The position numbers and the translations under genes were made by a program. Below the pieces are notes generated by a model. The model saw only the letters and a list, made by a program, of their open reading frames with translations. It ran no database searches and had not been told where the DNA came from. Positions 7,127-60,796 of a stretch of 64,000 nt of DNA are shown piece by piece. How positions within the stretch are numbered: position 1 is the stretch's first letter; each line of letters starts with the position of its first letter. The DNA is taken from the IMG/VR virus record IMGVR_UViG_3300046485_000051, positions 1-64,000 of that record; one strand, given 5' to 3'. This stretch comes from a virus.

Positions 7127-7452
7127 ACGAACTATTCCTTTGTGGCTTCACTTTAGCGCTGGGCTCCCTGCTGCTCCTGGTGCTGGATTTAATCGCGCGG
7201 CAGACTAGACAACAACTCCGAACCGAAAGAAATATTATGGCCAAACTATCCGAACTACCGGGACTCATCAATGGCTGCACTACTCAGTTGCAGGCCGCCG
7301 CCGACCGCATCACTGCTGCCCTGGCGAACCAGACTGACCCTGAACTGAGCCCGACGCTGACCGACAGCCTCAACATCTTGACGACTCAGACCGCCGCTAT
7401 CGTCGCGCTGGTGCCACCCGCGCCCGAGCCGACACCGACTCCCGCGACGTAA
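7123..7452 (+). CDS. Membrane-anchored hypothetical protein
   Basis: ATGA overlap. N-terminal TM segment LFLCGFTLALGSLLLLVLDLI and a Pro-rich C-terminus. Confidence 0.5.
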   Translation: MNELFLCGFTLALGSLLLLVLDLIARQTRQQLRTERNIMAKLSELPGLINGCTTQLQAAADRITAALANQTDPELSPTLTDSLNILTTQTAAIVALVPPAPEPTPTPAT

Positions 7453-7554
7453 ACGATTCAACCGGGTGTGCGAGTGAAACCGCGCGTGTTTCAACCCGAG
7501 AACCCCGAGGCCCTCAAGGTGCGAGCAGTGCCTCCTCGGGAGTGAACTGAGGGA

Positions 7555-7617
7555 TGCCGTCTCGTGACCGAGCCTGGTGCTTTGCCCCGGAGGCGCGGGA
7601 CGGCAGTTTTTGATTTT
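7555..7617 (+). terminator. Putative intrinsic terminator closing the 6170-7452 operon
   Basis: tgccgtc (7555-7561) pairs with gacggca (7599-7605) around a long loop, followed by gtttttgatttt. Confidence 0.4.
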
Positions 7618-7941
7618 ATGATACTTCGAGTGACCTGAGTAGGCTTTAACGGCGGCTGGAGGTTCGACCTTCGGCTCTGCGGGTCCGGGCGGGAATGGAT
7701 GCTAACTTTCTGGAAGTGGCACGTCCGCCTGATTCTTTGATTTTTGGATAGGGGCGCTTTCAGGCCGTCAGGCCGTCAAGCCTCGCGGAGCCCCGACAAG
7801 CGATAGACCTGGTGCGTTGACGCGCACGGAAAAGCATGCCGGTTGAAACCGGAGGTCCCCCTAGGTCGTGGGGTGCGGTTCATAGCCGTATGGTGTAAAA
7901 TTCGCTTCCTTTTCTGCCTCAAAAATAATCACACTTCTTTG

Positions 7942-7970
7942 TTGACACCCTCGCCTGCATAGACTATAAC
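7942..7970 (+). promoter_or_regulatory. Sigma70-type promoter TTGACA-N17-TATAAC
   Basis: -35 at 7942-7947 and -10 at 7965-7970. ATG at 7981 lies 10 nt after the -10 hexamer. Confidence 0.5.
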
Positions 7971-7980
7971 AAGTGACGGT

Positions 7981-8421
7981 ATGACACAGAACAAATTATG
8001 GTCTTTTGTAATCGTGACCCAGGGCGACGGGAAGCCGGGCGATTTGGGTTTTGAAACGCTCTTCAGCACGCGCGATGAAGTAGCGAAGGAAGCGCTCACC
8101 AAAATTCTTTGGGAACAGAATGCGGGTTTCCGCCGGTCCAACCAGACCCGCAACCGCCGGGAGGTAATTGTCACCCACATTGACAAGGCCGAGGCCGAGC
8201 GCTGGCAGAACACCGCCGGCCGGAATGGGCTCAAGGCCAAGCCAGTCAAGACCGGGCACGTCTTTAGCTCCGCAACAGAAGCCTCCGGGCACGTCGGGCT
8301 GCGACACAACGAGGTTGCGATGATTCTCTCGCGCTGCACATCCACGGGGGAAAAGCAGGCGACCGTCCGGGGCGTCACTTTTGCCTACCACGACGATGTG
8401 GCCGAAACAGCGAGCAAGTAA
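7981..8421 (+). CDS. Small DNA-binding protein with C-terminal NUMOD1-like HTH (paralog of 6170..6562)
   Basis: GHVFSSATEASGHVGLRHNEVAMILSR..GEKQATVRGVTFAYHDD. Confidence 0.6.
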   Translation: MTQNKLWSFVIVTQGDGKPGDLGFETLFSTRDEVAKEALTKILWEQNAGFRRSNQTRNRREVIVTHIDKAEAERWQNTAGRNGLKAKPVKTGHVFSSATEASGHVGLRHNEVAMILSRCTSTGEKQATVRGVTFAYHDDVAETASK

Positions 8422-8651
8422 TGAGCGCGTCAAATCAAAACCCCAACTGTGACGGGAGCGGGCCGCACGACCCGGGCGAGGTCCGCGTGCTGCCCCTGGG
8501 CTCGCAGCCCAACCACGGCAACCTGATTCTCTGCCGGCAGTGTTTTGGGCGGGAGCTTAGCTTTCGGCGTGAGCGTAACTGGTCGCTGAGCAAGGACTGC
8601 AAGTTCAAGCTGCCGCCCTGGGAGAGCCTGGAAGTTTACCCCGAGCCGTAA
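8421..8651 (+). CDS. Small Cys-containing (zinc-ribbon-like) protein
   Basis: TAATG overlap with the upstream gene. Carries NCDGSG..CRQC. Confidence 0.5.
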   Translation: MSASNQNPNCDGSGPHDPGEVRVLPLGSQPNHGNLILCRQCFGRELSFRRERNWSLSKDCKFKLPPWESLEVYPEP

Positions 8652-8656
8652 AAGTG

Positions 8657-8672
8657 GGGGAAAAGTTTCCCC
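8657..8672 (+). terminator. Short hairpin GGGGAAA-ag-TTTCCCC after the 8421 gene (weak terminator candidate)
   Basis: 7-bp inverted repeat followed by ttgacttttg. Confidence 0.25.
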
Positions 8673-8728
8673 TTGACTTTTGTCACCATAATTTGTTAAG
8701 CTCTGACAATGAGACCAAGTAAAACATT

Positions 8729-8938
8729 ATGCACGGCCTGAATCAAATCGTTGCCTTGAACGCTGAAAAGAAAAGCTCCTATGAGGGCAGGTTGCCCAGC
8801 CGCGAGCCCCAGGCTCCGCGCAGTATTCCTGTAAGTGAAGCTGACAAAGACAGCGCCTCGGGGAGAAACAACCAGCCCTACAACAAAGGTGGCGAGCCCC
8901 ATACTGGCGGCTGTGGCTGTCCTCCGGGCGCAAAATAA
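8729..8938 (+). CDS. Doubtful 69-aa ORF in the late-leader region
   Basis: ATG ORF, but third-position GC is only about 62% by hand count against about 73% in terL. It may be non-coding leader. Confidence 0.2.
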   Translation: MHGLNQIVALNAEKKSSYEGRLPSREPQAPRSIPVSEADKDSASGRNNQPYNKGGEPHTGGCGCPPGAK

Positions 8939-9040
8939 CTTACCCCGGTGCCAGGTCGGGAGCGCACGAGTGCGCGGAGGTCTTTTTTGTGTTTATCCTC
9001 CCCCTGCCCTGGCACCGGCTGCTTTAACTCAACCACGACT

Positions 9041-9196
9041 ATGGGAATCTTCGGAGCAATTTTTCTTCTGTTGGTCCTGGGCGGTCTCCTTGCCGGTGGC
9101 TACGTCTTTCTGTCGAAGCTGAACGCCGCGACCAAGGTTGCCCCGCTGGTCGATCTGCCGCATAGCCGGTGGACGGCCACGGGAACGTCCAGCTAA
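9041..9196 (+). CDS. 51-aa single-pass membrane peptide
   Basis: MGIFGAIFLLLVLGGLLAGGYVFLSKL... Third-position GC is about 73% by hand count, gene-like. Confidence 0.4.
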   Translation: MGIFGAIFLLLVLGGLLAGGYVFLSKLNAATKVAPLVDLPHSRWTATGTSS

Positions 9197-9208
9197 ATCT
9201 TCGGTGCC

Positions 9209-9253
9209 AGGGAGGATGGGAATGGCATAGGGATGGGGAATCAGGGATAGGGG
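9209..9253 (+). repeat. GGGA/GGGG-rich tract with three AGGGAU(A)GGGG-like units and six G-runs of 3 or more
   Basis: cagggaggatgggaatggcatagggatggggaatcagggatagggg. The last G-run is part of the terminator stem. Confidence 0.8.
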
Positions 9254-9291
9254 CCGCCGTCTGATGAAAAGGTCGGCGGCCCTTTCTGTTT
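9251..9291 (+). terminator. Strong intrinsic terminator ending at the terminase start codon
   Basis: gggccgccg (9251-9259) pairs with cggcggccc (9274-9282), then tttctgttt. ATG of terL is at 9292. Confidence 0.6.
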
Positions 9292-10833
9292 ATGGATACG
9301 GAAAACTGGTATAGACCGAGCAAGCAAATCGCCGAGTTCCACGAGAGCAAGGCCCGTATTCGCGCGCTAATTGGTGGGCGCGGCACCGGGAAGACCACGA
9401 CCATCGCGGTCGAGGCTATTGGGCACTGTCTGCACAACTCCGGTGCGAAGGCGTATATCCTCCGCAAGACCCAGGACTCGAACGAAGACACGACGCTGGA
9501 GACGTTCGAGAAGCAGGTCTTCCCGAACCTCGGGTCTGCTTACCGGGACACCGGGGTTTCACTGTTCAAGAAAGTTGATGGGGGCAAGCAGTTTCGGCTG
9601 CCGTCGCGTCTGGCCGTCGAGAAGTTCAACGAGTGGAAAGCAGCCAACCCGCGCGCGACGAAAGCCCAGACGTTGACCTGGCTCGAAGCGGTGGGGAATA
9701 TCTTCTGCTCGTGGCTCCTGTTCGCCGGTGTGCCCGAGGCGCGCTATCGTGCTTCGCGCTTTCGTGGTTACGAGTGCTCGCTGCTGATTTTTGTCGAGGC
9801 CGACCAGTTGGCCCGGGAAGACCTGGACCTCGGCGTCGCTTGTCTGCGGTGGAAGGGGGCGGACCCGACGACCTGCGATGAAAAGGGATTTATCAAGGAC
9901 GCCGGGGTCGTTCTGGACACCAACCCGCCGAGCCCCCGACATTGGATTGCCAAGCTCGAAGAAGAGTCCCTCGGTGACCCCTCAGTCCGCTTCTGGCACC
10001 TTCGCACGCGCGACAACGCACATAACTTACCCGAAGGCTACGCCGATGGCCTAGAGAGGCAATACCGGAAGAATCCGGCTATGCTGGCGCGGATGGTGAA
10101 CGGCGAATACGCCGAGGCGTTCGACGGGACGCCCGTGCTGCACGAGTTTGCCCAGGAGCACGCGAAGGAGAACCTGCCCTGGCCCAAGGGGGCCTATCTG
10201 ATTCGCGGCTGGGACTTCGGCTCGACCCAGGCCGTCATCTTCTCGGCCTACTGGGCGGAGGGGAACACGGAATACTGGTGGGACCTTCACGAGTTCTTTG
10301 CCCGGCAGTCCGACGTAGACCGTCAATGTAAGGCGGTGCTGGACATTACCCGGACGGCCTTTCCGTTCTGGAATGACCGGTCCATTTGTTCGGGCGTTCG
10401 CGACTACTGCGACCCGGCGGGCAATGCACAGACGGACAAGGGCTCCAGCGTCAACGTGCTGCGGACCTACGGCATCTATCCGGGCTTTATCCGCATGGGG
10501 CTCCAGGAGAGCATCGCGATTTACAACCGGCTGCTGGCGAAGAAGGACGCCTTCGACAAGCCTGTCTATCATCTGGACAAGCTGACGTGTCCGCAGCTTT
10601 TCGTCGCCAGTTCGGGCGGCTACCGGTATCCGGTCGAAGGGGAACCGGGCTTCGGCGGGGACGAGCCACTCAAAGGGCCGAGCGGCGGGGACTATGACCA
10701 CGTCTGTGACGCTAGCCGGTATGCCAAGTTTAACTGCCTGAAGCTCCTCCGAACGGAGGCCGAGCAGTCGAAGAAATCGGTCGGGGCGCTGGCGCACAAG
10801 GCGGCGGCCAACCACAACAAGCGGTATTATTAA
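9292..10833 (+). CDS. terL: Terminase large subunit
   Basis: 513 aa with Walker A IGGRGTGKTT near the N-terminus. Size and position ahead of the portal fit. Confidence 0.85.
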   Translation: MDTENWYRPSKQIAEFHESKARIRALIGGRGTGKTTTIAVEAIGHCLHNSGAKAYILRKTQDSNEDTTLETFEKQVFPNLGSAYRDTGVSLFKKVDGGKQFRLPSRLAVEKFNEWKAANPRATKAQTLTWLEAVGNIFCSWLLFAGVPEARYRASRFRGYECSLLIFVEADQLAREDLDLGVACLRWKGADPTTCDEKGFIKDAGVVLDTNPPSPRHWIAKLEEESLGDPSVRFWHLRTRDNAHNLPEGYADGLERQYRKNPAMLARMVNGEYAEAFDGTPVLHEFAQEHAKENLPWPKGAYLIRGWDFGSTQAVIFSAYWAEGNTEYWWDLHEFFARQSDVDRQCKAVLDITRTAFPFWNDRSICSGVRDYCDPAGNAQTDKGSSVNVLRTYGIYPGFIRMGLQESIAIYNRLLAKKDAFDKPVYHLDKLTCPQLFVASSGGYRYPVEGEPGFGGDEPLKGPSGGDYDHVCDASRYAKFNCLKLLRTEAEQSKKSVGALAHKAAANHNKRYY

Positions 10834-10840
10834 GGTCTGC

Positions 10841-10869
10841 TTGACCGAGGGTATTAAATTCGGTATGCT
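10841..10869 (+). promoter_or_regulatory. Promoter-like TTGACC-N17-TATGCT
   Basis: -35 at 10841-10846 and -10 at 10864-10869. ATG at 10878 is 8 nt downstream. Confidence 0.4.
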
Positions 10870-10877
10870 TGCTGATT

Positions 10878-11180
10878 ATGGACCAGGACACAGAAATCAC
10901 TACACCCGAGGCTGAGACCGCTGCGTCTCTCACGTTAAGCGGCGAGCAGGCCACCGAGTTTCTGGGCCTGGAGCCCGGCGACGAAGTCACTCTTCAGCTT
11001 ACCGGCAAGGACGAGAAGGCCGGCACCGTCACGTTTGAGAAGCTGACCGAGCCTGACGAAGCCGCGCCGGAGGAAGACGAAGCCACCACGGGCGCGGCCG
11101 AGGAGAAGGTCCTCGGCTACAAGCGCCCGAGTGTGAAGAAGGAAACGCCGAAGCTTTCGGCCGAAGACTTAATGAGCTAG
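10878..11180 (+). CDS. Acidic hypothetical protein
   Basis: ORF 10869..11180 trimmed to ATG 10878. Asp/Glu-rich, 100 aa. Confidence 0.5.
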   Translation: MDQDTEITTPEAETAASLTLSGEQATEFLGLEPGDEVTLQLTGKDEKAGTVTFEKLTEPDEAAPEEDEATTGAAEEKVLGYKRPSVKKETPKLSAEDLMS

Positions 11181-15911: not shown

Positions 15912-15948
15912 CTCTCCCGCGCAAGCCCGGCGGGAGAGGCTTCTCTTT
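15912..15948 (+). terminator. Intrinsic terminator-like hairpin ending at the next start codon
   Basis: ctctcccgc (15912-15920) pairs with gcgggagag (15930-15938), then gcttctcttt. ATG at 15949. Confidence 0.5.
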
Positions 15949-16668
15949 ATGATTGACCTAGTTTATGTGTTGGGTCCCGGAAGTTCCTGGGGCGACCGGG
16001 AACTTTTCTATTCGCTGCGTAGCGCCCAGGAGCACTTGCGGGGGATGGGGAAGGTTTTCATCGTCGGCACGGCCCCGAAGATTGCGCCGGACTTTGGCGT
16101 CGAGTGGACGCACGTTCCGGTGGAGGATAAGTCTTCCTGGCCGGCGTGCAACATTAACGCTTGCCTGCTGGCGGCCTGCCAGGTGCCGCAGCTATCTGAC
16201 ACTTTCCTGCGGGTGGATGACGACACATTTTTCCTGCGCGCGCAGGACGCCGATACTTTCCCGAATTACTACCGGGGGCTTCTTCCGGAGCACGTTCAGA
16301 TGCTTAGCGACCGCGCCGGCTCGCTCTACTACAAGTCTCTGTTGCGGACGGTTGCCTGGCTCAACGCGCGCCAGGTATCAAATCTTGACTTCGAGGTCCA
16401 CGGTCCGATGCGTTTCGAGAAGGCGAAACTCGGAGCGCTGCTGGCGAGGCTGAAGCCGGAGACCGGATTTCTGAGCCGCTCGCTCTACGGCAATCTTCAC
16501 AATCTTGCGGGCGAGCCAATGTCTGACTCGAAGATAGACCTCTCGCTCTCACCGGGCCAGATTGAGCGCCGGGTCAAGGACCGCCCGTTCTTCTCGGTGG
16601 GCGACCTGGGTTTGACTCACGCGATGCGAACTTTTCTGGGGCAGATATATCCGGGGAGGGTGCCTTGA
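15949..16668 (+). CDS. Stealth-family-like sugar-1-phosphate transferase (CR2-like region)
   Basis: DRELFYSLRSAQEHLRGMGKVFIVG and PQLSDTFLRVDDDTFFLRAQDADTF resemble my recollection of Stealth conserved region 2 (D.ELRYSLRS...IFIVT ... LSE.FIY.NDD.FF). Confidence 0.55.
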   Translation: MIDLVYVLGPGSSWGDRELFYSLRSAQEHLRGMGKVFIVGTAPKIAPDFGVEWTHVPVEDKSSWPACNINACLLAACQVPQLSDTFLRVDDDTFFLRAQDADTFPNYYRGLLPEHVQMLSDRAGSLYYKSLLRTVAWLNARQVSNLDFEVHGPMRFEKAKLGALLARLKPETGFLSRSLYGNLHNLAGEPMSDSKIDLSLSPGQIERRVKDRPFFSVGDLGLTHAMRTFLGQIYPGRVP

Positions 16669-50590: not shown

Positions 50591-51910
50591 TTATACTTTC
50601 TCGATTTGCTTTGTTACTTCTTTCTTTTGTTTCAGAAACCGGATTTTGTAGTCCGGTCGGCTAAGGAGCCCGTGCGCTTCCAGGGTTGAGCAGGTCTGCT
50701 CCCAGGCGGCTTTCTTGGTCAACTTCTCGCCGCGCGCTCGGGAGACTTCGACCAGCGCGTTCTTCGCGATGGTTTCCAGTTTCCCGAGAGCGAGCTTTGC
50801 CGCTCCGAGGATTTCCTCGGGCGAGCAAAATTCTTTGAGGGCCTCGGCGACTTCTGGAGCGGAGCCCAGGACGCGGTCGGCGCTGCGCTCCTGGACTTCA
50901 TAATGGACCTCGGTGCCGTCGGGCAAAGTGCAGTGGATTTCTCCTCCGTTGGTCTCGGCGATTTCAAAAGCTCGGGCTTTGATTTCGTCCAGGCCGCTCT
51001 CGATTATGTCCACCCAGTAGCGCGCCAGGGCCACGTCTTCGGGCTTGGTCAACTCCAGGCCCTTGAAGGACGGCGGCGTCGGCAGGCCGGCGTAGCGCGT
51101 GGCAGCAATGGCCCGATGGTTTGAAAGGACGGTGCAGCCTCCTGCCAGGGCGCAGTATTGGCAGTAGTGGCCCGGCTTCATGTAGCGCTGGGCATCCTGC
51201 GGGTTGGCTTTGACAAACTCGGCGCGCTCGATGACCTCGGCGAGCCGGGTGTAGAGCGCGTGAATATCCCGGCGCTCGAAAACTTTGGATGTGACCCAGT
51301 TAAGCTTCGGCTGAACGAATTCGACGCCGATGCGGTCCAGGTTGCGATACTTCAGGAAGCAACCGAGAGCGTAATTGATACCTTGCAGGTTGTCACTGGC
51401 TGGGCGGACAGGCACCTGCCCGAATTTGAAGTCCTGGACAATCCCCACGTTGCTGAACACGTAGAGAACATCGAGGAAGCCCCGGTTAAGTTCGGTGCCG
51501 TCGGGGTGGGTGACACTAACGGAAATTTCAGTAATGACGGCGGTAGGCTTCCGAGCCAGGAACGTATCCACACGTTTGCAGCAGAAGCGAAGGTAATCAA
51601 TTTCTTCATCGGTCAATTCGTGCTTTTTGGTGAGCCAGGCGGCGACTTGCTCCAGCGTGGTCTTATGTGCGCCCTTGTTCACCAGCGCTATCATGTCTTC
51701 CATGAGACCATGCAAGAAGGTCCCCTGCTCTGCCGCTTCACTGGTGCCACTCCTGGACGTGAAGCCGGCGCAGTCGTCCAGGTAGTTCATCTTGGACGGG
51801 CCGTATTTATGGTGGCTGCGCGTCTGGACTGTCTCAGGCGGCGGGATGACAGCCGGCAACAGTGCAGGAGTGCTTTCGGTCGGTGCGGGGGCAACAGTGG
51901 TTTCGTTCAT
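50591..51910 (-). CDS. PD-(D/E)XK nuclease of the Cas4/RecB type with a Cys cluster
   Basis: LDVLYVF..IVQDFKFGQ gives D..(D/E)xK. Cys in YLDDCAG plus CQYCALAGGC gives the C...CxxCx5C pattern of Fe-S Cas4-like nucleases. Confidence 0.7.
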   Translation of the reverse strand: MNETTVAPAPTESTPALLPAVIPPPETVQTRSHHKYGPSKMNYLDDCAGFTSRSGTSEAAEQGTFLHGLMEDMIALVNKGAHKTTLEQVAAWLTKKHELTDEEIDYLRFCCKRVDTFLARKPTAVITEISVSVTHPDGTELNRGFLDVLYVFSNVGIVQDFKFGQVPVRPASDNLQGINYALGCFLKYRNLDRIGVEFVQPKLNWVTSKVFERRDIHALYTRLAEVIERAEFVKANPQDAQRYMKPGHYCQYCALAGGCTVLSNHRAIAATRYAGLPTPPSFKGLELTKPEDVALARYWVDIIESGLDEIKARAFEIAETNGGEIHCTLPDGTEVHYEVQERSADRVLGSAPEVAEALKEFCSPEEILGAAKLALGKLETIAKNALVEVSRARGEKLTKKAAWEQTCSTLEAHGLLSRPDYKIRFLKQKKEVTKQIEKV

Positions 51911-54236: not shown

Positions 54237-54262
54237 GCGGAGGAGGGTCGGACTCCCCCGCT
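54237..54262 (-). repeat. 26-nt hairpin element, copy 1 (gcggaggagggtcggactcccccgct on the plus strand)
   Basis: Identical to 55072-55097. On the minus-strand RNA it forms a 9-bp stem with one G-U pair and a 7-nt loop, followed by a U-rich ttcactttctctt. Confidence 0.85.
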
Positions 54263-54269
54263 ATAGTTT

Positions 54270-55049
54270 TTAGTAAGCTTCAGCTTCTTCGCGGGTGATA
54301 AAGAAGTGAATGCCGCTAGAGCATTCAATCATGGGGTCTGGGTCGAAGGTATCCGGGCGCACGATCTGGCCCACGGCATACATGAAAGAATAGTCGTGCT
54401 GCGAGTGCCCTTCCCCTTCGAGGACGACTGCATACTCAGCGCGACACTTTCGCCCGATAAGGCCCCCGACACGCTTGGCCGCCGCCGGTATTTGGAGCTT
54501 GGAAATAGTCCCACCAGAAAGCTGTTTCCAGCCTACCAGGTCGCCTTCTGGCAGTATGGTGCGCTGCGAAAGCAGCTTGGACAGGTCGGCCCCGGACAGG
54601 TTGGCCCCGAACAGGTCGGCCCCGGACAGGTTGGCCCCGAACAGGTTGGCCCCGGACAGGTCGGCCCCGGACAGGTTGGCCCCGAACAGGTCGGCCCCGG
54701 ACAGGTTGGCCCCGGACAGGTTGGCCCCGAACAGGTTGGCCCCGAACAGGTCGGCCCCGGACAGGCTGGCCCCGGACAGGTCGGCCCTGGACAGGTTGGC
54801 CCCGGACAGGTCGGCCCTGGACAGGTTGGCCCCGAACAGGTTGGCCCCGGACAGGTTGGCCCCGGACAGGTTGGCCCCGGACAGGTCGGCCCTGGACAGG
54901 TTGGCCCCGGACAGGTCGGCCCCGGACAGGTCGGCCCCGGACAGGTTGGCTTTAGCAGCTATTGCCACCACCACGGCAGCGCCCAGGTATTCGGCATCCG
55001 TCTCGAAGAGAGTAGAGCCTGAATAGCGGTGTTTAATTTGAATCTTCAT
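54270..55049 (-). CDS. Pentapeptide-repeat protein (25 near-perfect A[ND]L[SF][GRK] units) with a globular C-terminal domain
   Basis: [25 protein letters not shown]... The C-terminal domain ends [16 protein letters not shown]. Confidence 0.8.
54576..54950 (-). repeat. 15-nt periodic coding repeat x25 (pentapeptide array)
   Basis: cccggacaggt[tc]ggc-type units back to back over 375 nt. Confidence 0.9.
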
Positions 55050-55071
55050 ATTGTGCTTTAGTAAGGGGTTG

Positions 55072-55097
55072 GCGGAGGAGGGTCGGACTCCCCCGCT
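55072..55097 (-). repeat. 26-nt hairpin element, copy 2
   Basis: Identical to 54237-54262. Lies 12 nt after the DUF932-like stop and 22 nt before the pentapeptide ATG. Confidence 0.85.
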
Positions 55098-59364: not shown

Positions 59365-59610
59365 ATGGGATTGACGACCCTCGGCGAACGCCACTACCTT
59401 CCCGACGTGCCGAACAAACGAAGGGCTGGGATGGTCTTTCTGGGCGGTTGGGTGCCGAAAGCCTGGAAAGACAGTCTAAAGGAAGTCGCTGCCCGGGAGA
59501 CGGGCGGAAACCTAGCGCTTGCTGCTAAACACCTAATCGAAGAAGCCCTGGCGGGCCGGGAGGAAACCCAGAAGCGGCCCAAGAAGAAAGCGGCAAAGCG
59601 TGTCGGCTAA
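59365..59610 (+). CDS. Ribbon-helix-helix (CopG/Arc-like) protein
   Basis: MVFLGGWVPKAWKDSLKEVAARETGGNLALAAKHLIEEAL fits a strand-helix-helix layout. ORF trimmed to ATG 59365. Confidence 0.5.
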   Translation: MGLTTLGERHYLPDVPNKRRAGMVFLGGWVPKAWKDSLKEVAARETGGNLALAAKHLIEEALAGREETQKRPKKKAAKRVG

Positions 59611-60796
59611 AGTCACTGTCAAGCGAGGCTCGGTATCTGTCCCCGTCTATCACACACCCGGCCCGCGCGGCGATGGCTGGACGGTGGCCTTTCGCGAGCC
59701 CGACGGCACCCGGCGGCGTATCTTTCGGGCTTCCCTGGTAGGAGCTAAGCAGGAGGCTGAAGTCATCGCGACGCGCCTGGCCAACGTGCCGGACACCCTG
59801 GTCGGCCCCGAGGCGCGCGAAGCTGGACAGGCTGCACAAGCAGCCCAGGCCGCCGGCATGACGCTGCTGGAAGCCGTCCAGGAGTGCTGCGGGGCCAAGG
59901 CGAAGCTCAAGGGCAAGGCCACGCTGGACACCGCTATCGACTACTTCCTAGCCCGGCACGTCGAGGAGCCGGCCCAGGTCTCGCTCGTTCAGATTTGCGA
60001 GGAGTTTCTCCGCCAGCAGGAGCAAGACGGACTCAATGAGCGCTACCGCGTGGAGCTTCTCCGCCAGCTTCGGCCATTCTGCGCGGACCTCGCCTGTCCT
60101 CCGGCGACCTTAACCGCCCGGCTGATTGATGACTGGTTGCGCGCCAGTCAAAAAGCGCACGCTTGGACGGGCAGAACGCGCAACCACTGCCGGGCGGCAA
60201 TTTCAAACATGCTCAACTTCGCGAAGCGACGCGGACACCTTCCCCGCGACTGGGCAGAAATGCCGTTCGTGCCCAAGGCCGTAGAAGAGGACGGGGAAAT
60301 CGGGATTTACTCTCCCGAGGACCTGGCGAAAATTCTAGCCAAGCCGATTGAGGTGGACCTCCTGCCCCTGGTTGTCCTCGGGGCGTTCACCGGGGCGCGG
60401 CCCAGCGAAATTCTGCGGCTGGGCTGGGAGGACTTTCACTGGGAGAGCGGCGAGCTATTCGTCGGCCAGGGTAAGGTAAGGACTGCCGGCCACCGAATAG
60501 CGCCGCTCTTGCCGGCGTGCGCGGCTTGGCTTCACCCGGTCCGCAAGACTTCGGGCCGGGTGACGGCGTTCGAGTTCTACGCGCCAGCGCTCGTCGGGCT
60601 TGTGCGGAGCGCTGGGGTAGCTTCCATCCAGGACGGCTTGCGCCACTCCTTCATAACCTATCGGCGTGCGGTGACTAAGGACCTGGCAAAGGTCAGCGGC
60701 GAGGTCGGCACTAATCCTGGCACCCTCACGAAACGCTACTGCCGACCCGTGAAACAGGCGGACGCGGAAGCGTGGTTCTCTCTGCGCCCGTCCTGA
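59600..60796 (+). CDS. int: Tyrosine recombinase/integrase
   Basis: GARPSEILRLGWEDF, HRIAPLLP, GLRHSFITYR and a C-terminal LTKRYCRP supply R..H.xR..Y residues in the usual order. GTG start. Confidence 0.8.
   Translation: MSAKVTVKRGSVSVPVYHTPGPRGDGWTVAFREPDGTRRRIFRASLVGAKQEAEVIATRLANVPDTLVGPEAREAGQAAQAAQAAGMTLLEAVQECCGAKAKLKGKATLDTAIDYFLARHVEEPAQVSLVQICEEFLRQQEQDGLNERYRVELLRQLRPFCADLACPPATLTARLIDDWLRASQKAHAWTGRTRNHCRAAISNMLNFAKRRGHLPRDWAEMPFVPKAVEEDGEIGIYSPEDLAKILAKPIEVDLLPLVVLGAFTGARPSEILRLGWEDFHWESGELFVGQGKVRTAGHRIAPLLPACAAWLHPVRKTSGRVTAFEFYAPALVGLVRSAGVASIQDGLRHSFITYRRAVTKDLAKVSGEVGTNPGTLTKRYCRPVKQADAEAWFSLRPS

Follow-up and report, generated by a model that had tools for sequence, protein, structure and literature searches.

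Conserved terminator-like hairpins ahead of the large terminase gene in uncultivated SU10-like soil and peat phages

Background

In the viral DNA described here, the gene for the large terminase subunit (terL) begins immediately behind a GC-rich hairpin and a U-tract, which raises the question of how transcripts reach it. The DNA is a stretch of 64,000 nucleotides (nt), positions 1 to 64,000 of IMG/VR virus record IMGVR_UViG_3300046485_000051 (the window), and the locus in question is the 640 nt directly ahead of terL, at positions 8652-9291. A first-pass annotation had taken these 640 nt for an untranslated, structured leader with no convincing long open reading frame (ORF), in which mutually exclusive RNA pairings would control a terminator abutting terL. 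Every sequence feature that it listed is indeed in place; its reading of the region as a leader fails, because most of it is coding. Two small ORFs, at 8729-8938 and 9041-9196, are conserved as proteins and together take up 366 of the 640 nt. The region would be the tail of a short operon, not a leader, with the order promoter (8673), ORF69, two-tier hairpin (T1), membrane-peptide gene, G-rich tract, terminator-type hairpin with U-tract (T2) and terL. As will be argued below, terL is most likely expressed only from transcripts that cross a terminator.

Relatives were collected by TerL from IMG/VR and JGI metagenomes; they are named L001 and so on, and WIN stands for the window. DNA similarity to them in the region is almost nil by blastn, even for the closest relative, L052, with 78% TerL identity. 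Because nucleotide alignment is nearly absent, the loci were compared by their architecture. No match was found by blastn among INPHARED phages, and a TerL scan of GTDB genomes gave no prophage relative. In TerL relatives at 64% identity or below (e.g. L007), a coding gene runs into terL and there is no hairpin.

A terminator-type hairpin at the terL start codon

The junction consists of three features.

9249-9284, + strand: GC-rich terminator hairpin T2, core stem 9251-9259/9274-9282, -25.2 kcal/mol
9283-9291, + strand: U-tract of T2, TTTCTGTTT, the sole sequence upstream of the terL ATG (9292); no Shine-Dalgarno motif
9292-10833, + strand: terL, 513 amino acids (aa); Pfam Terminase_6N (1.2e-9) and PHROG 2 (1.2e-28)

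The two family matches agree with the earlier naming of the gene, and the all-GC stem of 9 base pairs (bp), then TTTCTGTTT, then the ATG follow one another as had been described; A-U and G-U pairs lengthen the base of the stem. The region 9245-9295 folds at -27.4 kcal/mol (z = -4.2), and T2 is the most stable match in a scan of the window for hairpins followed by a T-tract (a terminator scan by permissive 60-nt folds gave too much noise to act as a background control). It has the makeup of an intrinsic terminator, namely a stable GC hairpin and, no more than 2 nt behind its stem and on the same strand as the upstream gene, a U-tract.

Hairpins of this type with a U-rich tail stand before terL in 15 lineages (WIN, L001, L002, L005, L023, L024, L028, L044, L045, L047, L048, L050, L051, L052 and L053). 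They stand 9-13 nt ahead of the ATG when measured at the GC core and 6-13 nt at the base of the extended stem, whereas anywhere between 17 and 88 nt separate the stem from the upstream stop codon. The stem sequences themselves differ among lineages (e.g. GGGCCGCC, GGGCGGCT, CGCCGGCA, GGTGCCGC, CAGCCCGG and CGACCGAT) and remain complementary. Stem pairs were counted on arm-only constructs, in which the loops were swapped for a fixed spacer and only the diversity of pair types, not the percentage paired, is informative; in these, the core pairs had changed on both sides in 8/8 cases, with 22 extra pair types, and none of 500 shuffles reached the observed covariation score. Covariation among relatives had been proposed earlier as a check, and the T2 stems do stay complementary through double changes, within flanking DNA that is otherwise unalignable.

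Two further lineages, L046 and L049, have the hairpin 26-60 nt from the start codon; it keeps its U-tract there, and the start codon now has AAGGAG or GGAGG ahead of it. That the U-tract stays with a distant hairpin indicates that it belongs to the hairpin. Where it abuts the ATG, it appears to replace the Shine-Dalgarno motif; most genes of the window have no such motif and are preceded by A/U-rich sequence. A split Shine-Dalgarno/hairpin model of the kind known from T4 gene 38 was considered and dropped, since most genes here lack the motif.

Junctions of the same kind occur elsewhere. At 15912-15949 of the window, a 9-bp GC hairpin and GCTTCTCTTT lead straight into the ATG of gene 15949-16668. 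L023 has a like junction (1653-1709) ahead of its ORF69 homologue, as has L050 (2214-2279) ahead of a gene for 239 aa. Placing a terminator against a start codon seems to be a common plan among these phages.

Promoters around terL

Which promoters could serve terL depends on the following sites.

8673-8702, + strand: sigma-70-like promoter, TTGACT, 18 nt, TAAGCT; 27 nt upstream of the ORF69 ATG
10841-10880, + strand: promoter right behind the terL stop, TTGACC, 17 nt, TATGCT, 8 nt, ATG 10878
8656-8672, + strand: small hairpin (GGGGGAAAAGTTTCCCC) directly behind the stop of a 76-aa gene, then TTGACTTTTG

No sigma-70-like promoter was found between 8703 and 10841, and hence none between T2 and terL; a terL promoter downstream of 9251, which the first-pass annotation had named as evidence against control at the terminator, is absent to this extent. 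By eye, T1 and T2 contain neither a sigma-70 promoter consistent among lineages nor a -10 element that would fit a leaderless terL mRNA. With the next promoter located only behind its stop codon, terL is boxed between terminators and a promoter.

The pattern TTGACT-N16-19-TARGCT, to which the upstream promoter belongs, occurs twice in the window against 0.04 expected, and the same promoter type (TTGACG-N17-TTAAGCT) precedes gene 50591-51910 on the minus strand. Sites of the form TTGACn-17/18-TAnnnT were found at 8673, 51943 (minus), 42259 (minus) and 10841. The promoter at 8673 is kept at nucleotide level in L052 and L001, which also keep a small hairpin before it; the promoter was not found in most relatives. 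The small hairpin, noted previously at 8657-8672 and present at 8656-8672, abuts the -35 box and resembles a terminator of low strength; the one that L052 has in the same place differs in sequence (GGCGAG/CTCGCC).

The promoter behind terL (-35 TTGACn, -10 TAnnnT, ATG 7-11 nt on) is more widespread, being recognized in WIN, L001, L002, L005, L023, L044, L046, L049, L050 (with a weaker -35), L051 and L052. The ATG is so near the -10 box that it would imply a near-leaderless mRNA for the next gene, the first of head morphogenesis. No RNA-polymerase family matched any of the 36 window ORFs scanned, and a 2745-aa protein gave methyltransferase and DUF matches only, so nothing points to phage-specific promoters.

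A second hairpin and two small genes

The remainder of the supposed leader is made up of another hairpin and two small genes.

8729-8938, + strand: ORF69, conserved small protein of 69 aa, found by tblastn and profile search
8945-9018, + strand: two-tier hairpin T1, outer stem 8945-8960/9003-9018, from the fold of 8940-9025
9041-9196, + strand: gene for a 51-aa single-pass membrane peptide, predicted N-terminal transmembrane helix followed by a polar tail

The perfect 11-bp inverted repeat reported earlier (8945-8955/9008-9018) can be extended to the full outer stem of T1, which encloses inner hairpins A (8962-8975) and B (8976-9001), the latter with a 16-nt U-rich loop (8981-8996) that includes a T6 run. 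The region 8940-9025 folds at -43.4 kcal/mol (z = -4.8), and none of 200 shuffles was as stable. Position-equivalent two-tier hairpins exist in 11 relatives (L002, L023, L024, L044, L045, L047, L048, L049, L050, L051 and L053), after ORF69 or a 'middle' gene and before the peptide gene or T2. The inner loop, approximately UUUUCAUGUUUU, is kept in all 11 except L023, where it is U/G-rich. Outer and inner stem sequences differ among lineages, with double changes in 12/12 stem pairs counted; MAFFT with RNAalifold gave no structure for the inner hairpins, their arms being out of register. A strict search for hairpins with the U-rich loop, over the loci through L050 and the window, returned the T1 sites plus one other, with 10 of the 11 relatives listed.

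Eight lineages have a 'CUUAC'-like pentamer behind the stop codon that precedes T1. The tail of T1 is weak in the window (CTGCTTTAAC) and clearer, as a U-rich tail, in L023, L045, L047, L048 and L049; given such tails on several copies, T1 also looks terminator-like. At the T1 position L052 has a hairpin without the U-rich loop and L001 a tRNA-shaped fold, and no T1-like hairpin was seen in L005. Rfam has nothing for the locus beyond chance matches, either at permissive thresholds (7500-10500 and six relatives) or at the gathering threshold (whole window); the relatives additionally gave tRNA-Met.

ORF69 matches by tblastn in L001, L002/3, L005/6, L023 and L024, despite almost no blastn similarity there. 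With a profile built from six members, the family grows to at least 37 clusters of proteins 50-81 aa long, none annotated beyond hypothetical or unnamed; LPN.EPQAPRSIP...NN.PYN.GG is the conserved core. In 11 of the 11 looked-up contigs that reach terL (L053 ends just inside it), the gene lies 130-550 nt upstream of terL in the same orientation, and an SU10-type portal gene follows downstream wherever the locus extends that far (L045, L046 and L047). The protein is predicted to be largely disordered (AlphaFold: mostly coil with one short helix, pTM score 0.21, low confidence) and has no Pfam, PHROG or PDB match. Many relatives have an extra basic 'middle' gene of about 52 aa behind the ORF69 homologue, with no homologue in the window.

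Homologous membrane peptides of 43-58 aa occupy the same position as the 51-aa peptide in at least seven lineages (L001, L023, L024, L028, L045, L047 and L048), and its PDB matches are other transmembrane helices only. The peptide gene is absent in eight lineages (L002, L005, L044, L049, L050, L051, L052 and L053). In seven of these T2 abuts the terL ATG; the exception is L049, whose sole hairpin lies 60 nt upstream.

Proposed expression of terL by read-through

The explanation that we favor, with a probability of roughly 0.55, is that the short operon beginning at 8673 (possibly also at 7942) ends in two intrinsic terminators, T1 and T2, that terL is reached by read-through only, and that the U-tract of T2 doubles as the terL start region, which lacks a Shine-Dalgarno motif. 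Rho-independent termination would take place at T1 and T2 on the RNA of the + strand. Since terL has no promoter of its own and the next one begins only past its stop, it would be transcribed only by polymerases that read through both hairpins, either constitutively or with the help of a factor. Such dependence would keep terminase mRNA scarce relative to that of the upstream small genes. The use of one U-tract both for termination and as an A/U-rich translation start would also explain the fixed distance from stem to ATG. The same anatomy, with the same elements and with stems kept complementary in different sequences, recurs across lineages; from it we infer that termination does occur at T1 and T2 and that read-through feeds terL. 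The entry into terL through a terminator, as proposed in the first-pass annotation, is thus plausible, with the hairpin kept in 15 lineages; the alternative-pairing switch attached to it is not supported (see below).

Several points weigh against this explanation. The terminator and promoter rules are extrapolated from model bacteria and may not be those of the host. Some relatives have very strong-looking terminators (U8 in L044), and two strong terminators in tandem would leave very little terL mRNA unless termination is suppressed. Simple termination leaves the conserved T1 loop, the enriched TAGGG/GGGGAA tract and the strict synteny of ORF69 unaccounted for. In addition, the stem arms were picked by folding each sequence, and the percentage paired is therefore partly a matter of construction.

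Alternative explanations

The first alternative supplies the suppression: a phage factor of the Q, N or p7 kind, which might be ORF69 acting via the T1 loop, would make polymerase resistant to terminators and so time terL. The tandem strong terminators with no promoter after them suit such a gate, as does the promoter about 600 nt upstream in WIN, L052 and L001, a layout resembling lambda PR'-tR'. A conserved loop on varying stems is the look of a protein-recognized RNA hairpin; ORF69 is small, predicted to be disordered and strictly syntenic; and small phage antiterminators are known, namely p7 of Xp10, of 7 kDa (PMC4513864), and gp39 of P23-45 (PMC3351154). However, ORF69 has no similarity to known antiterminators in Pfam, PHROG or PDB and no arginine-rich motif, the promoter at 8673 was not found in most relatives, and T2 is kept in L052, which lacks the U-rich loop, in L001, with its tRNA-shaped fold in place of T1, and in L005, in which no T1 was seen. 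We regard the gate as unlikely. Pairing ORF69 with the conserved T1 loop for antitermination is speculative, and its elaborated form is a good deal more doubtful still: T1 would be a new cis-acting RNA element that forms, with ORF69, a processive antitermination device like N/nut or p7, timing terminase by letting host RNA polymerase through T1 and T2, with the TAGGG/GGGGAA tract as a possible further binding platform.

The hairpins could instead be mainly elements of mRNA processing, stability or translation, with T1 an intercistronic site of the RNase III type and T2 a protective 5'/3' hairpin placing ribosomes on the AUG without a Shine-Dalgarno motif. T2 is anchored to the start codon and not to the upstream stop, a Shine-Dalgarno motif is found only where the hairpin is far from the start, and the stacked stems of T1, about 20 bp with internal loops, resemble the RNase III sites of phage T7. 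The U-tracts, however, trail the hairpins even far from start codons (L046, L049 and the T1 elements), which is the signature of terminators, and RNase III would call for longer stems than the 9-14 bp of T2. A predominantly post-transcriptional role is accordingly quite improbable in our estimate.

The third alternative concerns the G-rich tract.

9209-9253, + strand: G-rich tract, with TAGGG at 9228 and 9248 and GGGGAA at 9235, from motif counts

The tract contains the six runs of three or more G described previously, and a canonical G-quadruplex motif lies at 9230-9253. As a conserved element the quadruplex fails: the motif is limited to the window and its closest relative, L052, and is absent in 15 other lineages. 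The short units, in contrast, are enriched. For TAGGG, a motif picked with the data already in view, the last 110 nt before terL in 17 lineages contain 17 copies; random windows have 0.8 on average and never more than 8 (5000 trials). GGGGAA is found in 7 of 14 spacers before T2 against 0.21 expected. In L053, the loop of T2 is the site of three CCTAGGGCAR units, 10 nt each and in tandem. GGA-containing units, which a CsrA/RsmA-binding RNA would present in several hairpin loops, also occur; one predicted loop (9210-9222) carries AGGAUG, and the units vary among relatives (TAGGGCA in L053). Purines beside the stem pair with the U-tract in predicted folds. The tract is possibly a protein-binding platform at the RNA or the DNA level.

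The TAGGG repeats, perhaps with the hairpins, might accordingly be packaging signals (pac/cos) read by the terminase beside its own gene. The tract lies immediately upstream of terL, its motif is repeated one to four times, the three exact tandem units of L053 each measure one helical turn, and the family search gave no small terminase subunit among the terL-adjacent genes tested. On the other hand, TAGGG is absent in 9 of 17 lineages, the complementary but different stems and the strand-specific U-tracts argue that the hairpins function as RNA, and no evidence from contig ends was found. We consider a packaging signal very unlikely.

The last alternative is the switch of the first-pass annotation, which depends on one more feature.

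9202-9217, + strand: third copy of the T1 5' arm (CGGTGCCAGGG) plus AGGAT, complementary to 8995-9017

A third exact copy of CGGTGCCAGG is present at 9202-9211, as had been observed; this 10-mer occurs exactly three times in the window, all within 8946-9211, and the complementarity stretches to 8995-9002/9210-9217. The duplex of the T1 3' half with the spacer behind the peptide ORF has z = -2.6 in the window, only 1% of dinucleotide shuffles being as stable, and is at chance level in L023, L024, L045, L047 and L048; the third copy was not found in six relatives. The sequence behind the stop of the peptide ORF (9194-9223) repeats pieces of the ORF start (9041-9057), namely AATCTTCGG at 9046 and 9196 and ATGGGAAT at 9041 and 9216, where the latter opens a mini-ORF of four codons (ATG GGA ATG GCA TAG). 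Given these repeated fragments around it, the third copy could be a duplication scar.

An attenuator in which T2 forms or not according to the partner of 9008-9018, be it 8945-8955 or 9202-9212, is therefore hardly credible, even with three exact 10-mers confined to 270 nt and a window duplex that beats 99% of shuffles: the pairing is above chance in the window only, the third copy lies clear of the T2 stem, so that its pairing with T1 would leave the terminator intact, T1 folds locally in the minimum-free-energy structure, T1 stands directly beside T2 in lineages without the peptide gene, and the surroundings of the third copy suggest a duplication scar.

Other features of the window and its relatives

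Just upstream of the locus, about 530 nt at 7452-7980 contain no credible ORF. They hold hairpins with U-tracts at 7555-7605 (then GTTTTTGATTTT) and 7681-7735 (then TTTGATTTTTGG) and a promoter-like site, TTGACA-17-TATAAC, that ends 10 nt before ATG 7981, and look like another operon boundary. The 76-aa ORF at 8421-8651, directly before the 8673 promoter, has four cysteines (C10, C38, C41 and C60) and is possibly a zinc ribbon; no family match was found for it, and no homologue in the relatives.

ARAGORN found no tRNA within the window. In relatives, tRNA-Met genes lie at varying places around terL (L023 2043-2115, L002 5997-6072, and just after terL in L045), that of L023 in the spacer that also holds T1. 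The tRNA-shaped fold of L001 (3126-3245) has a 7-bp acceptor-like stem, a T-arm-like GGTTGGAATCC and long insertions, and is called by neither ARAGORN nor Rfam.

The terL genes of L005 (3968-5971) and L006 are 667 aa long owing to an inserted intein-like segment (CFSGDT...LVSN, then C), and in a relative carrying P0024 an HNH gene stands upstream of a 654-aa terL. In the window, about 25 copies of a 15-nt unit are repeated in tandem at 54489-55025, inside the minus-strand ORF 54270-55049; the array is flanked by two identical 26-nt hairpin sequences, GCGGAGGAGGGTCGGACTCCCCCGCT, at 54237 and 55072 (region 54237-55097). A weak match to the phage-integrase family (22.6 bits, below the Pfam cutoff) was found at 59600-60796, and L051 has a resolvase/recombinase upstream. 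These phages may therefore be temperate.

Significance

In this clade of uncultivated SU10-like soil and peat phages, terL appears insulated from both neighbouring transcription units, which implies a dedicated way to keep the terminase scarce or to time its production. The conserved parts that the locus offers are two families of small proteins that lack annotation, a structured RNA motif without a counterpart in Rfam and an enriched G-rich motif. It also shows that 'empty leaders' in the annotation of such phages can hide real micro-genes, and that a terminator can share sequence with the start region of a gene where the host makes little use of Shine-Dalgarno motifs.

Comparison with known systems

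As in classical attenuators and riboswitch platforms (trp, pyrBI and T-box), a terminator lies just upstream of the regulated start codon. However, no conserved antiterminator that excludes the terminator, no aptamer and no Rfam family was found here, and the upstream peptide is not a regulatory leader peptide but a conserved membrane protein, absent in eight lineages.

T1 is comparable to HK022 put and lambda nut boxB in being a structured RNA of about 60-75 nt upstream of a terminator, with a conserved loop on varying stems. It differs in form, a stem within a stem with a U-rich loop of 12-16 nt, from the two tandem stem-loops of put and from the GNRA-like pentaloop of boxB, and ORF69 has no arginine-rich motif.

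Lambda PR' is constitutive and is terminated just downstream (PMC7547250). Here too a promoter and terminators precede morphogenesis or terminase genes, and no further promoter stands ahead of the gated gene. In contrast to PR'-tR', two protein-coding genes lie between promoter and terminator, the promoter is kept in three lineages only, and terL alone, not a whole late operon, is behind the gate; no Q homologue was found by Pfam and PHROG among the neighbouring small ORFs tested, and no Q-binding element is definable.

The T-phi of phage T7 is an intrinsic terminator that acts as a leaky gate inside a phage operon. In Xp10, the long late operon contains several intrinsic terminators along its course, and transcription passes through them (PMC4513864). 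The present locus is like both in having a GC hairpin and U-tract within a co-directional string of genes, the downstream ones of which need read-through. It is unlike both in that the U-tract runs directly into the terL start codon and that terL is the sole gene between the putative terminator and the next promoter. In short, the parts are of known kinds, namely intrinsic terminators, sigma-70 promoters and small phage genes; what seems new is their conserved arrangement, in which terL is probably the only gene behind tandem terminators, a U-tract is fused to its start codon, and an RNA hairpin with a U-rich loop, absent from Rfam, is accompanied by two unannotated families of micro-proteins.

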